This document shows, piece after piece, positions 1 to 8,306 of a stretch of DNA of 8,306 nt. Positions within the stretch are counted from its first letter, which is position 1. Every line of letters starts with the position of its first letter. The DNA lies in NCBI GenBank assembly GCA_964507075.1, contig CAZDOL010000016.1, positions 1,326-9,631 of the forward strand, read 5' to 3'. Under the pieces are notes generated by a model, which saw only the letters and a program-made list of their open reading frames with translations, searched no databases and had not been told where the DNA came from. A program made the position numbers and the translations under genes. This stretch comes from an uncultured Gammaproteobacteria bacterium (GTDB lineage: Bacteria; Patescibacteriota; Patescibacteriia; UBA2591; UBA6264).

Positions 1-40
1 TTAATCATTTTATATAAAATAATAATTAAAATATTAAAAT

Positions 41-598
41 ATGGAAAATTTTAAACGAAATAGTAGATTCGGTGGAAGGGGAGGCAGTGGGGGATTTGCA
101 GGTAGAAATTCTGGAAAAACAGAAATGCATAAGGCAATTTGTAGTAAATGCGGACAAGATTGCGAAGTGCCATTCAAACCAAGAGGCGATAAACCCGTTC
201 TTTGTAGCGATTGTTTTAGGAAAGATGGCAATAACGAGCAGAGAAGATTTAGTGGAAGAGATTCAAGAAGGTCCAGTTTTAGTGATAAAAAAATGTATGA
301 AGCAGTTTGCGCTGAGTGTGGAGAAAAATGTGAAGTCCCTTTCAGACCTACAGGCGATAAACCCGTTTATTGCAGTGAATGTTTTAGTAAAGGAAGCAAG
401 AGCAAAAGTTCTGAGCAATCAACGAAACAATTTGATTCAATAAATACTAAACTTGATAAAATCTTGGAATTATTAACTCCAGCTCTTCCTGTAGCAACAA
501 AAGAGAACAAAAAAGTTGTTAAAAAAGAAAAAGTTGTTAAACCTAAAAAAGCAAGCAAGGATAAAAAGACAAAAGTAACAACAAAAAAGAAAAAATAA
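41..598 (+). CDS. Tandem CxxC-x17-CxxC zinc-ribbon protein with an N-terminal RGG-rich segment and a C-terminal Lys-rich tail; putative nucleic-acid-binding protein
   Basis: 185-aa track ORF. It has two internal repeats: aa 29-61 MHKAICSKCGQDCEVPFKPRGDKPVLCSDCFRK (nt 125-223) and aa 85-117 MYEAVCAECGEKCEVPFRPTGDKPVYCSECFSK (nt 293-391). Each repeat is CxxC, exactly 17 residues, then CxxC. The N-terminus is RFGGRGGSGGFAGR and the C-terminus is KKVVKKEKVVKPKKASKDKKTKVTTKKKK. The overlapping +ORF 72..443 has no such structure. Confidence 0.8.
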   Translation: MENFKRNSRFGGRGGSGGFAGRNSGKTEMHKAICSKCGQDCEVPFKPRGDKPVLCSDCFRKDGNNEQRRFSGRDSRRSSFSDKKMYEAVCAECGEKCEVPFRPTGDKPVYCSECFSKGSKSKSSEQSTKQFDSINTKLDKILELLTPALPVATKENKKVVKKEKVVKPKKASKDKKTKVTTKKKK

Positions 599-3128: not shown

Positions 3129-3251
3129 ATGATCATTTTTAGACCCAGTAGAAGAACTTGGTTTTACAATTTCAAAACCAAATTGAAATTAAATTATTTG
3201 TTCCCCCTGAGAAAAACAATCAGATTATTCTATTTTTATAGAAAGGGGTAG
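3129..3251 (+). CDS. 40-aa highly cationic, aromatic-rich peptide (hypothetical)
   Basis: Hand translation: MIIFRPSRRTWFYNFKTKLKLNYLFPLRKTIRLFYFYRKG. It has 11 K/R, 0 D/E and 11 F/W/Y. AGGAGG at 3116-3121 lies 7 nt before the ATG. The 19-nt translation-initiation region (3114-3132) is 17/19 identical to the one at 2692-2710. It lies just upstream of the cassette terminator. The composition is odd, so it could be spurious. Confidence 0.4.
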   Translation: MIIFRPSRRTWFYNFKTKLKLNYLFPLRKTIRLFYFYRKG

Positions 3252-4943: not shown

Positions 4944-5414
4944 ATGAATAAAAAAATATTATTCTCAGCACTAGCTCTCAGTCTTTTATTCACTTTAGGT
5001 GTAAATTCAGCTTTAGCTCAAGGTTGGTTTCATGGTAGAGAAAACTTTGATCCTGAAAAAATTGTTGATAGACAAACAGAAATGTTTGAAAACCAGGCAA
5101 ATTTATTAGGTATTAGTGTAGATCAAATGAAAGAGTATTGGTCAGCGGGCAAGAATTTGAAAGAAATTGCTACAGAGCTGAACATTAGTGACGAAGACTT
5201 ACGCCTGAAGATGCAAGAAGGGCAAAAAGAGAGAATGAGAGAAGGTTTCAATGCTTTAGTTGAAAATGGAGTTATTACTCAAAAACAGGCAGATAGTCGA
5301 CTTACTTTTACGCAAGATAGAATGAATAATCTTGATGGTCAAATAGGTAAATTTGGCAAAAGAGGATTAAAAGAAGGCTTTGGGGGTTGTAAGTTTAATA
5401 AACTTGATAAATAA
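4944..5414 (+). CDS. Secreted alpha-helical protein (Sec signal peptide); third gene of the ECF sigma operon, possibly DUF2680/YckD-like
   Basis: Track ORF 4872..5414, trimmed to MNKKILFSALALSLLFTLGVNSALA|QGW, a classic n-h-c signal with an ALA cleavage site; ATG 4923 is an alternative start. The mature part is rich in E/K/Q/M. The motif VENGVITQKQADSRLTFTQDRMNN recalls DUF2680 from memory only. No terminator separates it from the preceding gene. Confidence 0.75.
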   Translation: MNKKILFSALALSLLFTLGVNSALAQGWFHGRENFDPEKIVDRQTEMFENQANLLGISVDQMKEYWSAGKNLKEIATELNISDEDLRLKMQEGQKERMREGFNALVENGVITQKQADSRLTFTQDRMNNLDGQIGKFGKRGLKEGFGGCKFNKLDK

Positions 5415-5445
5415 TTTAATTAATAAAAATTATTAACCTTTAATT

Positions 5446-5477
5446 AAAAAGTATCTCCCTTTGGGGAAATACTTTTT
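5446..5477. terminator. Bidirectional hairpin (A-run, stem, T-run) between convergent genes; likely the uppP terminator
   Basis: AAAAAGTATCTCCC (5446-5459) pairs with GGGAAATACTTTTT (5464-5477) with one mismatch, giving a U-run on either strand. Confidence 0.6.
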
Positions 5478-5486
5478 AATTATTAC

Positions 5487-5521
5487 AATGGTTGACCCTA
5501 GGGGTCAACCATTATTTTTTT
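5487..5521 (+). terminator. Strong rho-independent terminator of the sigma operon
   Basis: Perfect 12-bp stem: AATGGTTGACCC (5487-5498), loop TAG, GGGTCAACCATT (5502-5513). It is followed by A and T7 (5515-5521). The T-run overlaps the uppP stop codon on the other strand. Confidence 0.75.
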
Positions 5522-6263: not shown

Positions 6264-6291
6264 ATAATAGCAGGGAGCTTAAAATTGTCAA
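6264..6291 (-). promoter_or_regulatory. Sigma70-type promoter of uppP, positioned for a leaderless transcript
   Basis: Minus strand reads TTGACA (6291-6286), a 16-nt spacer, TATTAT (6269-6264), then 6 nt (tcccat) and the ATG at 6257. No Shine-Dalgarno sequence is possible in that space. Confidence 0.55.
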
Positions 6292-6320
6292 CTTTCCTTA
6301 TCTCTAATAATCTGCTATAA

Positions 6321-6347
6321 TTAAATATTCATGTAATGAATATTTAA
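6321..6347. repeat. Perfect 12-bp inverted repeat with a 3-nt centre (candidate operator or hairpin)
   Basis: TTAAATATTCAT-gta-ATGAATATTTAA. It extends to 14 bp per arm with the flanking AA/TT (6319-6349). Confidence 0.9.
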
Positions 6348-6354
6348 TTTCAAG
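6339..6354. repeat. Copy 1 of the 16-bp direct repeat AATATTTAATTTCAAG
   Basis: Exact 16-mer that overlaps the right arm of the palindrome. It is followed by CTTTGC-TTATAATTAA. Confidence 0.9.
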
Positions 6355-6392
6355 CTTTGCTTATAATTAAAATACCTTAATTTTTATACAAT

Positions 6393-6408
6393 AATATTTA
6401 ATTTCAAG
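6393..6408. repeat. Copy 2 of the 16-bp direct repeat AATATTTAATTTCAAG
   Basis: Exact 16-mer, 54 nt downstream of copy 1. It is followed directly by the GC-rich array, which ends in TTATAATTAA (6542-6551). Confidence 0.9.
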
Positions 6409-6542
6409 GTTCCTGAGCGAAGCGAAGAGGTTCTTACTGTGAGCGTAGCGAACAGCAACGTTCTCGACGAACGAAGTGAGGAGGGGTTGTTACTATGAGA
6501 GTAACGAATAGCAAGGTTCTGCGAACGTAGTGAGCAGGTTCT
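6406..6542 (+). repeat. GC-rich degenerate tandem repeat and hairpin array with GGTTCT-like cores; candidate structured RNA or multi-site operator
   Basis: GGTTCT-like cores lie at 6408 (GGTTCC), 6429, 6459 (CGTTCT), 6485 (GGTTGT), 6515 and 6537. Two ~55-nt tandem copies (6428-6483 and 6484-6537) are about 80% identical by hand alignment. There are five stem-loops of 3-4 bp closing 11-15-nt purine-rich loops. G+C is about 50% against about 16% in the flanks. No ORF of useful length occurs on either strand. Confidence 0.85.
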
Positions 6543-6548
6543 TATAAT
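6543..6548 (+). promoter_or_regulatory. TATAAT -10 box positioned for a leaderless transcript of the 6555 gene
   Basis: TATAAT (6543-6548), 6 nt (taactt), then ATG 6555, with no SD. The -35 position reads TGCGAA/GCGAAC (6520-6526), which is poor for sigma70 but contains the GAAC core common in ECF -35 elements. Confidence 0.4.
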
Positions 6549-6554
6549 TAACTT

Positions 6555-6953
6555 ATGGAAATTATTAAACCAAATTCTAGACCAATACGCTTGCTTTTCT
6601 TTTGGTCAGGAATTATAGCTACTTTGGCTTATCGCATAATTATTGTTTTAAATTTTTATAGCCCTTTATGGGTAAAAATTTCTTGGTATATTGGAACTAT
6701 TGGTTTTATTATCTATTTTTGGCATCGTTTTGATATTCAAAAAAAGAGGTCAGAATTGGCTTTAGATCATAAACTAATTGATGCTGTAGAAAAAAATCAA
6801 TACGAAAGCCAAGAACAAAAAGAAGCTTTAAAATATATTGTCAAAACTAGTTTAACTTCAAAATCAAGATGGAATTCAGCATTTATTTGCTTGATGTCTA
6901 TCTTGGCTTTAGTAGTGGGATTAGTTATGGATATTACTCAAATGTTAAAGTGA
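6555..6953 (+). CDS. 132-aa membrane protein, three predicted TM segments, no recognised family
   Basis: Track ORF. Hydrophobic segments at about aa 13-35, 37-57 and 108-128, with a charged helical middle (KKRSELALDHKLIDAVEKNQYESQEQKEALKY). Ends in TGA. Confidence 0.75.
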   Translation: MEIIKPNSRPIRLLFFWSGIIATLAYRIIIVLNFYSPLWVKISWYIGTIGFIIYFWHRFDIQKKRSELALDHKLIDAVEKNQYESQEQKEALKYIVKTSLTSKSRWNSAFICLMSILALVVGLVMDITQMLK

Positions 6954-6971: not shown

Positions 6972-7076
6972 ATGCATAGAAAAAAATCTCGTCAAATTGC
7001 TAAGGTTCTCAAAGAAAAGGGAGTAAAAAAACTCTCTAAGAACCAAAAAAAGAAACTAAAGAACCGCTTTAAATAA
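6972..7076 (+). CDS. 34-aa Lys-rich peptide (hypothetical)
   Basis: Hand translation: MHRKKSRQIAKVLKEKGVKKLSKNQKKKLKNRFK, with 16 K/R and 1 acidic residue. No clear SD. It is in frame with the preceding ORF across the TGA at 6951-6953. It could be non-coding. Confidence 0.35.
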   Translation: MHRKKSRQIAKVLKEKGVKKLSKNQKKKLKNRFK

Positions 7077-7297: not shown

Positions 7298-8306
7298 AAC
7301 GAGCCCATTATTAAAGAAGAAGAGATTGAAAAGCCTTATACTGTTAGCAGTTATTTAAATCTTTTAAATGATAGTCTTCGTCAAATAAAAGGGCGAATTC
7401 AAGGAGAAGTGACGGAATTAGATATTAGGAGTAGTTATTTGTTTTTTTCCCTAAAAGATCAAAAAGATGAAAGCATTTTAAGGTGTTTTATGTGGAGAAA
7501 GGATTATGAGTTGTGTGGAATTTCTTTGATAGAAGGTTCCGAGATTATAACTAATGGAGTTTCCGAAATCTATAAACCAAGTGGTCGTTTAAGCTTTAGG
7601 GCATCTACTATAGAATTAGTTGGAGAAGGAGCATTGAAAAAAGCTTATGAAAAATTAAAAGAAAAATTAAAAGAAGAAGGATTATTCGCTGCTGAAAAGA
7701 AAAAAGTCCTACCAGAATTTGTTCAAAGAATAGGACTAATAACATCTTCTAACGGAGCGGTTATTCATGATTTTCTGAATAATTTGGGCAAATATGGGTA
7801 TAAAATTAAATTTCAAGATTCCAGAGTAGAAGGACAAATCGCTGTTTCAGATTTAACTTTTGCAATTGATTATTTTGCCAATCAAAAAATTGACGTTTTA
7901 ATCATTATTAGGGGTGGCGGAAGCTTAGAGAGTTTACAGGCCTTTAACAATGAAGCTTTAGTTCGTAAAATTGCTAATTTTAATGTTCCGGTGATATGCG
8001 GGATAGGACATGACAAAGATGTACCTTTGGCCTCTTTGTGTTCTGATTTAATGGTTTCTACACCCACTGCAGTTGCCATTGTTCTAAACAAATCTTGGGA
8101 ACAGGCCATAAACACTATTCAGAAATTAGAAAGAGATATTTTAGATAAATACCAAAATATATTAATTATTCAAAAACATCGTTTAGAAATTATTGCCAAT
8201 GATTTGATTTCTAAGTTTGATTTTATTTTCAAAAAGTTTGATTTTATAAAATCCAGAATAAATGACGCTTTTATTTCTCTTAGCTATAAATTAGAACAAA
8301 AAAATA
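7085..8306 (+). CDS. xseA: Exodeoxyribonuclease VII large subunit (XseA) with an N-terminal HRDC domain; 3'-truncated by the window edge
   Basis: Open frame from ATG 7085 to the window end (407 codons), missing from the track because there is no stop. aa 1-71 is HRDC-like (LLSQLKEWRKTTAQKEGVELFRVFPNKTIESIAQIKPQNKEELIEIKGIKEKKFCKYGEDILNMI). From aa 85 it is XseA-like: the OB-fold region IQGEVTELDIRSSYLFFSLKDQKDESILRCFMW, then RIGLITSSNGAVIHDF, IIRGGGSLESLQAFNNEALVR and PVICGIGHDKDVPLASLCSDLMVSTPTAVA. Confidence 0.9.
   Translation, partial: MDQKLLSQLKEWRKTTAQKEGVELFRVFPNKTIESIAQIKPQNKEELIEIKGIKEKKFCKYGEDILNMIKGNEPIIKEEEIEKPYTVSSYLNLLNDSLRQIKGRIQGEVTELDIRSSYLFFSLKDQKDESILRCFMWRKDYELCGISLIEGSEIITNGVSEIYKPSGRLSFRASTIELVGEGALKKAYEKLKEKLKEEGLFAAEKKKVLPEFVQRIGLITSSNGAVIHDFLNNLGKYGYKIKFQDSRVEGQIAVSDLTFAIDYFANQKIDVLIIIRGGGSLESLQAFNNEALVRKIANFNVPVICGIGHDKDVPLASLCSDLMVSTPTAVAIVLNKSWEQAINTIQKLERDILDKYQNILIIQKHRLEIIANDLISKFDFIFKKFDFIKSRINDAFISLSYKLEQKN

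Follow-up and report, generated by a model that had tools for sequence, protein, structure and literature searches.

The spacer between uppP and the divergently transcribed gene for a 132-aa protein contains a GC-rich island (6409–6541) within an 8,306-nucleotide stretch of contig CAZDOL010000016.1, the whole of which was analysed and is called the window here. Sequence comparison indicates that this island is the variable GC-hairpin cargo of one copy of a dispersed family of nested palindromic repeats in Patescibacteria. The repeat probably resembles in kind the repetitive extragenic palindromic (REP) sequences and bacterial interspersed mosaic elements (BIMEs) or the miniature inverted-repeat transposable elements (MITEs), and would multiply by insertion and tandem duplication at promoters. 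The assignment of the hosts to Patescibacteria/Parcubacteria rests on named homologues. The features of the locus are as follows, with L001–L267 as labels of the comparison contigs and loci.

6264–6291, minus strand: promoter of uppP, with TTGACA (6291–6286), 16 nt and TG-n-TATTAT (ending at 6264); 11/12 consensus matches, with TG.
6315–6328, plus strand: R0, CTATAATTAAATAT, the ancestral −10 region of the gene for the 132-aa protein, aligned with L255, L257, L011 and L256.
6339–6373, plus strand: unit 1, the 'empty' form, a direct repeat of 6393–6411; left arm AATATTTAATTTCAAG (6339–6354), centre CTTTG, right arm CTTATAATTAAAAT (6360–6373) with TATAAT at 6362–6367.
6360–6408, plus strand: AT-rich hairpin A of unit 2, made of arm R1 (AATTAAAAT), a loop (6374–6392) opening with the conserved ACCTTA, and left arm L2 AATATTTAATTTCAAG (6393–6408); covariance-model match 6362–6441.
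6409–6429, plus strand: U1, GTTC and the Ha-type hairpin CT-GA-GCGAAGC-GA-AG, whose outer stem is degenerate.
6430–6459, plus strand: U2, GTTC and the Hb hairpin TTACTGT-GA-GCGTAGC-GA-ACAGCAA.
6460–6485, plus strand: U3, GTTC and the Hc hairpin TCTC-GAC-GA-ACGAAGT-GA-G-GAGG.
6486–6515, plus strand: U4, GTTG and a degenerate Hb, TTACTAT-GAGAGTAACGA-ATAGCAA.
6516–6541, plus strand: U5, GTTC and the Ha-type hairpin CTGC-GA-ACGTAGT-GA-GCAG, with a closing GTTC at 6538–6541.
6541–6557, plus strand: R2, the right arm CTTATAATTAACTT, with TATAAT (6543–6548) 6 nt before the ATG (6555) of the gene for the 132-aa protein.

The island is real sequence, given its recovery in ten independent assemblies (NCBI, ENA, JGI, Logan), in which it is 99.3–100% identical and constant in length; one of them is GCA_000405165.1, a single-cell assembly at NCBI, and the other nine are contigs from metagenomes. 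The sole single-nucleotide difference among the ten assemblies, C6413 against A, lies in the outer stem of U1 and is uncompensated. An earlier note on this DNA had described the island as tandem hairpin repeats with compensatory changes, and its raw observations hold throughout. A recount agrees with its composition figures (66/132 G+C in 6409–6540, 16/100 in 6301–6400), in a window whose overall G+C is 31.4% and whose 100-nt composition profile has its maximum at 0.49. The GGTTCT-like cores lie where it placed them (6408, 6429, 6459, 6485, 6515 and 6537), the stems H1–H5 are exactly complementary and the purine-rich loop words were quoted correctly. The tandem copies 6428–6483 and 6484–6537 share 45 identities on alignment; Tandem Repeats Finder (TRF) reports 6429–6538 with period 56, 2.0 copies, 82% matches and a score of 146. 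Exact GTTC or GAAC tetramers stand at 6409, 6430, 6450, 6460, 6469, 6516, 6523 and 6538, and those at 6486 and 6506 are one-off variants, for which the note had allowed with its word '-like'. The island contains the 11-nt core GA[AG]CG[AT]AG[CT]GA four times, and no other instance was found in about 100 kb taken from this genome and three relatives.

The frame of the family corresponds to window positions 6360–6552. Its consensus runs from (T/C)ATAATTAAAYTAC through a loop of about 25 nt opening with AC(C/A/T)TTA, ARTTTAATTTCAAG, GTTC and the GC hairpin or hairpins to GTTCTTAT(A/T)(A/T)T, the slot accommodating from 0 to more than 7 GC mini-hairpins with GTTC after each and the right end reading TTAT(A/T)(A/T)T. 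Each GC unit of 20–30 nt consists of an outer stem of 2–7 bp, a tandem G·A/A·G step and a two-base-pair apex closed by a GNA triloop, with the variants GCGAAGC, GCGTAGC, ACGAAGT and ACGTAGT. Slot centres measure 6, 20, 24, 26, 30, 44–47, 76–82, 105 and 133 nt, the last being that of the window; the 20-nt centres are exemplified by CTGAC-GAA-GTCAG, hairpin centres of 24 or 26 nt account for 34 copies among the loci listed, and those of 44–47 nt enclose another GC hairpin in their apex. Most of 60 copies have one GTT[CG] tag more than they have hairpins; two multi-hairpin centres, whose tags are mutated, fall short of this. GTTC marks the junctions between hairpin units, and GAAC sits in hairpin cores. 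The empty form with a CTTTGC centre has 9 further occurrences among the loci listed, including tandem arrays in L151 and L016. A hairpin within a hairpin was seen in L149 (about 7897), L163 (minus strand, about 417 and 4414), L138 (minus strand, about 144) and L225 (about 104), where a stem-loop GTCCCGC-TGA-GCGGGAC, or one of CCTGCC type, is nested in the GAA apex of Ha and flanked by repeated GAA/CGAAG.

The units of the window can be traced individually in the family. The three-hairpin module Ha-Hb-Hc of 80–82 nt, to which U1–U3 belong, is present in L140, L150, L151, L152, L159 and L232. The family version of U1, GTTCCTGAGCGAAGCGAAGGGTTC, has 5 occurrences elsewhere among the loci listed, and U3 together with its Hb-CAAC-GTTC-Hc junction recurs in L140, L150, L152, L159 and L226. 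U2 combines a conserved A·C mismatch with a covarying R:Y pair, which is G:C in the window U2, L150 and L152 and A:T in L140, L151, L159, L164, L232 and U4. L233 and L145 have a single-hairpin centre, GTTCTGCGAACGTAGTGAGCAGGTTC, with exactly the sequence of U5. The apex of U4 is mutated, giving rise to an alternative hairpin GTTACT..AGTAAC, whose DNA fold (z = −3.09) is the only one of the island and its units to depart from shuffles. The mini-hairpin sequence GCGNAGC itself is found in U1 (GCGAAGC) and U2 (GCGTAGC), U3 and U5 carry the A:T variant ACG(A/T)AGT, and that of U4 is degenerate.

Stems of 3–4 bp carry no weight alone, and single units compared with shuffles gave z values from +1.24 to −1.67, none significant. 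The claim that the units are genuine hairpins under compensatory change is nevertheless borne out by covariation across about 80 independent copies elsewhere. The note's change between H2 and H4 (G6439:C6453 to A6495:T6509) covaries throughout the family, whereas that between H3 and H5 falls away, since it compares Hc with Ha, two hairpin types and not copies of one unit. Alignment A1, tested against a two-hairpin structure that we specified, has 98.4% of its cells paired, compared with 93.6% after shuffling (0/500) and 15–56% with the partners slid; double changes affect 6/15 pairs (32 cells), and the covariation score is 0.210 against 0.119 (0/500). Helix 1 of hairpin A is 97% paired family-wide, with double changes in 3 pairs, and its variants AAATT/AATTT, AAACT/AGTTT, AAGTT/AACTT and AGATAC/GTATCT can occur several to a single contig; in the window, two stem pairs of hairpin A are mismatched and no fold is predicted. 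Among 84 independent Ha hairpins, the non-Watson-Crick pairs comprise 15 G·T and 1 A·C, although the search pattern permitted both equally. Because G·T is tolerated and A·C is not, one strand appears to matter: either selection acts on the purine-rich strand in single-stranded form or C-to-T changes are biased towards it.

The wide dispersal of the family became apparent from a scan of JGI metagenomes with the pattern CTRY-core-RYAG, 0–4 nt, GTTC (about 18 base-equivalents), which was taken from the window's own hairpins and matches twice in the window and never in shuffles. It found at least 114 loci, mostly of 30–40% G+C, which share far more sequence than the pattern required. Covariance model R1 was built from 34 single-hairpin copies of other contigs with the window excluded, and it recovers the window element at 6362–6441 (72.4 bits, E=8.4e-12) and 6491–6549 (49.1 bits, E=4.9e-7). 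Applied to the 700 kb of metagenome loci listed, R1 detects 111 copies at E<=1e-3, and in GCA_016783845.1 ('Patescibacteria group bacterium') it detects at least 6 within 16.9 kb; several contigs carry 4–9 element copies. BLASTN against other contigs, a check that the earlier note had proposed, returned related copies of 6363–6492 with 92% identity over 132 nt in L152 and L226 (E=2e-48), 91% in L150 and L202, and 87% in L232. Copies of the L152/L226 type stand before a ClpC-like gene (909–911 aa), and others adjoin gyrB, smpB (twice), rpsL, tuf, prfA, prs, a methyltransferase gene and a phosphoesterase gene, so that the Ha-Hb-Hc module of the window is found beside unrelated genes in other contigs. 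Element copies also adjoin tRNA genes: the right end (TTATTCAAT) of the copy at L159 1438–1560 lies about 12 nt before a tRNA 5' end, and in L226 (about 10509–10620) a tRNA gene on the opposite strand directly follows the element hairpin. A phage origin was rejected, as IMG/VR yielded only 3 matches, in 2 of 2.9 million viral contigs. A left-arm match at 7800–7826 was dismissed as chance, since it is part of xseA, and relatives conserve it there as coding sequence. One more feature of the window could belong to the family.

3146–3229, minus strand: possible degenerate second copy on weak evidence (covariance model 23.2 bits, E=0.09), between the gene for a 159-aa protein and an extracytoplasmic function (ECF) sigma gene; left arm AATAATTTAATTTCAA, AT-rich hairpin TTTGGTTTT..AAAACCAA, then GTTCTTCTA.

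The history of the island can be read from the orthologous spacers. The 132-aa protein has hundreds of homologues, and the relatives that retain it differ in the number of units upstream.

L255: 132-aa protein 87% identical; divergent uppP; spacer of 70 nt in total, ending ...TGGTAAAATTAAATC directly before ATG; 0 units.
L257: 84% identical; 70-nt spacer arranged as in L255; 0 units.
L014: 83% identical; spacer ending CTGGTAAAATTGAGTT directly before ATG; 0 units.
L011: 89% identical; 55 extra nt (ACATTAATTT...AATATTTAATTTCAAGCTTTGCTTACAATTAAATT) between TAAATT and ATG; 1 empty unit.
L256: 88% identical; an insert of about 97 nt at this same position, carrying other GC hairpins; 1 unit.
Window: 2 units, 6339–6373 (empty) and 6374–6554 (five hairpins).

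The position of the insert is constant, between '−10 + 6 nt' (...TAAATT) and ATG. In relatives the counterpart of R0 adjoins the start codon (...TGGTAAAATTAAAT(C/T) followed by ATG in L255 and L257), and in the window R0 lies about 227 nt further upstream. The insert ends in TA(T/C)AATTAAATT or a close variant, GCTATTAAATT in L256 and TATAATTAACTT in the window, and a −10-like hexamer is rebuilt 6 nt before ATG, namely TATAAT in the window, TACAAT in L011, where an empty unit of the unit 1 type stands directly before ATG, and a weak GCTATT in L256. Because the spacers of relatives hold 0–1 unit at one insertion point, the island is a recent, lineage-specific gain at a repeatedly hit site, the TSS-proximal junction of a leaderless promoter, and not a conserved leader. 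R2 can be taken as a leaderless-type proximal promoter supplied by the element; its TATAAT-6 nt-ATG geometry is also found at the right end in L138 and L163. Other genes here have a −10 hexamer 6 nt before ATG as well (e.g., TAGAAT-AAAAAA-ATG), and uppP is similar, reading as leaderless with its ATG (6257) 7 nt past the −10 box. We also observed that window positions 33–67 and 6547–6581, covering the promoter end and first codons of unrelated genes (MENFK..., MEIIK...), are 80% identical over 35 nt; such '−10 + start' regions of leaderless genes may be exchanged or constrained. A lysine-rich 34-aa open reading frame (ORF) at 6972–7076, directly after the gene for the 132-aa protein, was called in all relatives examined (L001–L015, L255, L256) and is probably a real small protein.

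Growth of the hairpin array can be followed at the clpC locus. A ClpC protein (P0175) 89% identical to that of L152 is encoded in samples of the window organism (ERZ27248953, 3300028167, 3300028168), and upstream of its gene the same element subfamily forms an array Ha-(Hb-Ha)n, with n=1 in L260, n=3 in L263 and n of 3 or more in the others; 6/8 clpC contigs end inside the array. The U4/U5 junction, Hb-CAAG-GTTC-Ha, is that of the arrays in L236 and L258–L267, which suggests that U4-U5 is an added Hb-Ha pair and not a diverged U2-U3.

We propose the following course of events for the window lineage. Units would have been added between '−10 + 6 nt' and the ATG of the leaderless gene for the 132-aa protein, whereby the ancestral TGGTAAAAT promoter would have been pushed about 227 nt upstream and the element's own TATAAT-N6 set before the ATG, so that a promoter-like arrangement would persist. 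The slot would then have been filled with the three-hairpin module Ha-Hb-Hc of the family (U1–U3), and a further Hb-Ha pair (U4-U5), of the kind multiplying in tandem elsewhere, would have been added. The hairpins would act as single-stranded, strand-specific structures, more probably in DNA than in RNA to judge from the apex chemistry and the strand asymmetry. Propagation could proceed by insertion of copies at GTTC sites and by slippage-type tandem duplication, and an enzyme of the Y1/HUH type, similar to the REP-associated tyrosine transposases (RAYTs), is a candidate mobiliser. The local effect would be a replacement of the DNA upstream of the −10 box by GC-rich, hairpin-prone DNA. A candidate gene for such an enzyme (L258 7195–7902) lies 4 kb from the clpC array; its product of 235 aa contains an HUH motif and matches Y1_Tnp in Pfam (28.8 bits, E=1.5e-6), and a second Y1_Tnp gene is present in the relative L014. 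The surroundings of the former contain a palindrome family of their own, ACTTGGGAGTCCGACTCCCAAGT, with five copies round the Y1 gene (L258 7164–8012, also in L259) and related copies in L236 and L159; the two copies within the Y1 ORF each encode LGSRTPK, which resembles intragenic REPs or the Rickettsia palindromic elements (RPEs).

Several observations weigh against a mobile repeat multiplying at promoters or limit how far it can be taken. The mechanism of mobilisation is inferred only. The 235-aa protein scores 20.8 bits against NCBIfam REP_Tyr_transpos, for which the cut-off is 80, and its gene is flanked and twice interrupted in frame by the 23-nt palindrome and not by GTTC hairpins, so the Y1 gene may serve another repeat. 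Neither clean terminal inverted repeats nor a target-site duplication were found when the orthologous spacers were compared, and breakpoints and target duplication are ambiguous because target and element end share about 12 nt. Copies in tandem spacers are 14 co-oriented and 15 anti-oriented with genes, and this unbiased orientation gives no support for lagging-strand-specific insertion as in IS200/REP-type elements. Dispersal within this very genome is only probable, with one locus in 20 kb in addition to the weak match at 3146–3229, and the clpC copy, a probable second locus, is tied to the organism of the window by sample co-occurrence. The conservation of the core in the metagenome loci is partly forced, because the pattern was derived from the window hairpins; the arms, the loop and the R/Y covariation are free of that constraint. 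Strand-biased C-to-T mutation instead of selection could stand behind the G·T excess. The nearest-neighbour folding energies of the units are ordinary, for which the thermodynamic models offer a reason, as they miss the stability of mini-hairpins: the melting temperature is 76.5 °C for d(GCGAAGC) but 39 °C for r(GCGAAAGC) (PMC13037366).

The strongest rival, which may hold in addition to a mobile origin, is that the element is a portable promoter or terminator-promoter cassette with a host function, retained for its outward −10 boxes: TATAAT at the right end and TAANGT, the reverse complement of AC(N)TTA, at the left, each serving leaderless genes on its side, with hairpins that would insulate against or terminate incoming transcription or tune the promoter via DNA hairpin extrusion. 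Its placement speaks for such a role, since the 41 classifiable clusters among the loci listed occupy 29 tandem, 11 divergent and 1 convergent spacers against a background in the same loci of 80% tandem, 10.4% divergent and 9.6% convergent (divergent excess p=0.003, convergent deficit p=0.09). In many copies the right end is 6–40 nt from a co-oriented start, with starts 8–40 nt off in addition to the TATAAT-6 nt-ATG copies of the window, L138 and L163; in about 20 copies a leftward gene has its start codon no more than 10 nt from the left boundary, often as CAT followed by AATTAAA. TATAAT and AC.TTA are near-invariant in alignment A1, the neighbours tuf, rpsL, gyrB, clpC, smpB and prfA are highly expressed, and the concept of reused promoters exists (PMC3575422). 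The divergent enrichment, the closeness to start codons and the conserved left-end TATAAT could thus mark a useful cassette and not one merely tolerated, which also counts against the preferred reading. On the other hand, the −10 box stands 6 to more than 200 nt from the AT-rich part, depending on the number of hairpins, so there is no fixed upstream promoter geometry, and for 38/69 copies the 160 nt beyond the right end contain no co-oriented start. A consensus scan for intrinsic terminators (GC-rich stem of at least 5 bp, loop of 3–8 nt, T run) did not class the hairpins as terminator-like, with no site on the plus strand of the island and a single one on the minus strand (6473–6459). Rapid turnover at orthologous sites speaks against the element being indispensable, and in compact genomes, with a median tandem gap of 64 nt, any intergenic element adjoins genes. 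We regard a host-serving cassette as possible but somewhat doubtful.

The two readings that the earlier note had offered, a structured leader or small RNA (sRNA) of the gene for the 132-aa protein and a phased operator array, both fail on the absence of the island from orthologues, the dispersal of the element beside unrelated genes and its random orientation; on the preferred reading, neither uppP nor that gene has a dedicated sensor or regulator in the island. A transcribed RNA would be either a 5' leader from TATAAT 6362–6367, which is intact and directed into the island, or an sRNA of about 70 nt per element, starting with AC(C)UUA and ending after the GC hairpin in a U-rich GGUUCUUAU tail; the T-rich GGTTCTTAT(T/A)(T/A)T after the hairpin and the confinement of G·U-type pairs to the purine-rich strand (15 vs 1) would suit it. 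It is nonetheless improbable, because orthologous loci lack the island, copies stand at unrelated genes in random orientation, and the loop that would form the body of the RNA varies between subfamilies, AC.TTA alone being kept. The 5' arm of the covarying hairpin A would lie in the −10/discriminator region and so outside the transcript, and the apex motif is much more stable as DNA. RNA folding of 6400–6560, another check named in the earlier note, was no better than for shuffles (z = −0.63 on the plus and −0.07 on the minus strand), and no curated RNA family fits the island, with Rfam empty at E<=10 over 6300–6560 and nothing on the repeats of 20 hairpin-array loci at the gathering score. 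The note could match the element to no REP or MITE family, yet REP/BIME/MITE-like repeats are the closest known kind. A phased array of GTTC/GAAC sites bound by a regulator of the divergent promoters, such as an ECF sigma system or a response regulator, would account for eight exact tetramers in 133 nt against 6.7 per kb window-wide and for some spacings near 10 or 20. The tetramers are, however, junction tags and parts of hairpin cores that recur beside unrelated genes in many genomes, and because GTTC is a junction tag, their spacing is hairpin length (20, 24, 26 and 30 nt). The GTTC-to-GTTC spacings of 21, 30, 26 (to GTTG), 30 and 22 nt are not phased, relatives with uppP and the gene for the 132-aa protein (in L011 and L014 with the ECF sigma gene adjacent) do without the island, and the uppP promoter lies outside the element and is identical in relatives without it; of all the readings weighed, the operator is the one to which we give least credence. 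Hardly more credible is a local, neutral minisatellite, or variable-number tandem repeat (VNTR), arising de novo by slippage without relation to a dispersed element. The two 56-nt copies reported by TRF and the varying copy number at the clpC locus would fit, but the units, junctions and flanks recur at 85–92% identity at other loci and genomes, and the array has the same length in all ten assemblies. The note had counted copy-number-variable repeats devoid of covariation and transcription as a sign of neutrality, and the hairpins are kept by covariation. Slippage accounts for the growth of the array, e.g., U4-U5, and not for its origin; as a complete explanation the VNTR is contradicted.

Further candidates were set aside. 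U2 with its GTTC...GCAAC ends and 30 nt resembles a repeat of a CRISPR array, in which case U3 and U5 would be the spacers; these are alike and dispersed, and no cas gene was found in the 20-kb neighbourhood. An open frame of 30 codons through the island has no start codon and is not conserved, and a five-codon ATG ORF after GGAGG (6479–6512) was treated as chance. The search for tRNA and tmRNA in the window found none. Weak Rfam matches at 5389–5516 (RAGATH-6, Plasmid RNAIII and others) are chance matches to terminator-like hairpins after the gene for a 180-aa protein. Two such hairpins follow each other there, at 5441–5482 (19-nt arms, 95% complementary) and about 5487–5512 (GGTTGACCC..GGGTCAACC), their position being conserved in L011 and L014 with differing sequences. 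Elsewhere in the window, a 109-nt direct repeat (123–231 and 291–399, 74% identity) represents a duplicated CxxC...CxxC module in the gene for a 185-aa zinc-ribbon protein (zf_Tbcl_2).

A better knowledge of such repeats is of practical importance. GC islands in the AT-rich spacers of the candidate phyla radiation (CPR) resemble structured RNAs, and their identification as repeats averts false riboswitch or sRNA calls. Hairpin arrays also explain assembly breaks, as 6/8 clpC contigs end within one. To judge from Rfam 15 and the literature searched, repeat families of Patescibacteria are undescribed. Because the present family is abundant, stands before tuf, rpsL, gyrB and clpC and turns over between species (proteins 84–89% identical), it may be a major source of promoter rewiring in these organisms, whose regulators are very few. 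The series of 0, 1 and 2 units at one locus and of 1, 3, 5 and 7 or more hairpins is natural material for promoter work. We also entertain the more speculative and rather unlikely idea that the family is a self-propagating CPR promoter cassette, which would insert at '−10 + 6 nt' of leaderless genes, rebuild TATAAT there and recognise its target, e.g., via the internal complementary arm. The GNA mini-hairpins could then be Y1/HUH cleavage or priming sites at GTTC, or extruded modulators of transcription similar to those of phage N4. If true, the family would form a new class among mobile regulatory DNAs, apart from REP/RAYT systems and MITEs.

The relation to known repeats is closest at the apex of the hairpins. 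Enterobacterial REPs carry loops of the GCGAAGC/GCGTAGC type (Nunvar 2010, PMC2817692), and passages of Di Nocera 2013 (PMC3733652) describe GTAG- and CGTC-tagged REP super-families and place REPs downstream of genes and in convergent spacers. In a scan of one genome per species of the Genome Taxonomy Database (GTDB) for two adjacent cores, the apex GAGCG(A/T)AGCGA was found to cap TGTC/CGTC- and GTAG-tagged REP-like arrays in at least 120 species representatives (L018–L137). The matches listed come from Acidobacteriota, Chloroflexota, Bacteroidota, Planctomycetota, Actinomycetota, Cyanobacteria, several CPR lineages, haloarchaea and Methanosarcina. These arrays combine an invariant apex with variable stems in tandem, e.g., GTCATCCTGAGCGAAGCGAAGGATC and GTCATTGCGAGCGAAGCGAAGCAATC, and of the 379 cores among the matches listed, 43% are enclosed by a perfectly paired outer stem of 4 bp or more, compared with 5% after re-pairing of the flanks. 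Unpaired tags in that set are TGTC/CGTC in about 72 cases and GTAG in 11, corresponding to the two super-families as those passages present them. The recurrence of an 11-nt apex from Acidobacteriota to haloarchaea has a testable physical reason in its stability in single-stranded DNA. Core-capped arrays were also seen just downstream of tRNA genes (L031, L036, L041, L093), and in a metagenome-assembled genome of Campylobacterales (L106 1271–1390) three mini-hairpin units (GAGCGTAGCGA, GAGCGAAGCGA, AACGAAGTGA) lie within an ORF resembling an IS256-type transposase, which suggests that such units can insert into coding DNA.

The window family resembles REPs (among them REPINs, PMC3116915) and BIMEs, palindromes of 20–40 nt with a conserved tetranucleotide by the stem, in its units U1–U5 of 21–30 nt, its conserved linkers, tandem reiteration, compensatory stem changes and G·T pairs, and in the presence of a Y1 transposase gene in the lineage. 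Its linkers, BIME-like, are the GTTC tags, CAAC/CAAG and the AT-rich hairpin A. The tag of the window family is GTTC (once GTTG) on both sides of every unit, whereas REPs have GTAG or CGTC (TGTC/CCTC), unpaired, at one end; the family favours the promoter side and divergent spacers, unlike the downstream and convergent location given for REPs in the same passages; and all hairpins of an array share one orientation, whereas those of BIMEs alternate. Moreover, the hairpins are nested in a second, AT-rich palindrome with TATAAT, and no RAYT flanked by GTTC hairpins was found, the Y1 locus on L258 included. As for MITEs, the arms AATTTAATTTCAAG and CTTATAATTAAATT are complementary at 12/14 positions in a hand alignment, but they flank the slot or pair as hairpin A and are not the ends of the element.

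The Correia or NEMIS elements of Neisseria are likewise small, non-autonomous repeats, abundant between genes, whose AT-rich ends make −10-like boxes and can drive adjacent genes. Their terminal inverted repeats of 26 bp, TA duplication and integration host factor (IHF) site were not seen in the window element, and they are not known to carry arrays of GNA mini-hairpins. The small dispersed repeats (SDRs) that Elhai et al. are said to have described in 2008 in Nostoc and other cyanobacteria are reportedly hairpin repeats of about 21–27 nt with nested insertion into specific short targets; they differ from the window family in sequences, hosts and targets and are not known to be tied to a carrier palindrome bearing TATAAT.

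Reused or 'putative mobile' promoters were defined by similarity alone (Nijveen, Matus-Garcia, van Passel 2012, PMC3575422). The element shares with them an identity of 85–92% over about 130 nt before non-homologous genes and a consensus −10 box at the gene-proximal end; it differs in its two covarying hairpins and variable slot, and about half of its copies have no co-oriented downstream gene. The d(GCGAAGC)/d(GCGNAGC) mini-hairpins are known from single-strand origins of phages and plasmids and from the hairpin promoters of phage N4 (PMC13037366). U1 and U2 have the identical apex, with flanking purine steps and a location in a transcription-initiation region, but the known mini-hairpins are single sites for primases or the N4 virion RNA polymerase, whereas the motif of the window is multiplied in a dispersed repeat. 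The family was not found in Rfam 15 or by a literature search on sequence strings and keywords for CPR/Patescibacteria repeats or leaderless promoters, the core and flank strings leading only to primers and unrelated uses. The kind of element is thus known, from REP/BIME/MITE-like repeats and from reused promoters (PMC3575422), and the GTTC family is apparently undescribed. What is new is the combination of GTTC tags on both sides, GNA mini-hairpins nested in an AT-rich palindrome bearing TATAAT, a location on the promoter side of genes, and Patescibacteria as hosts.

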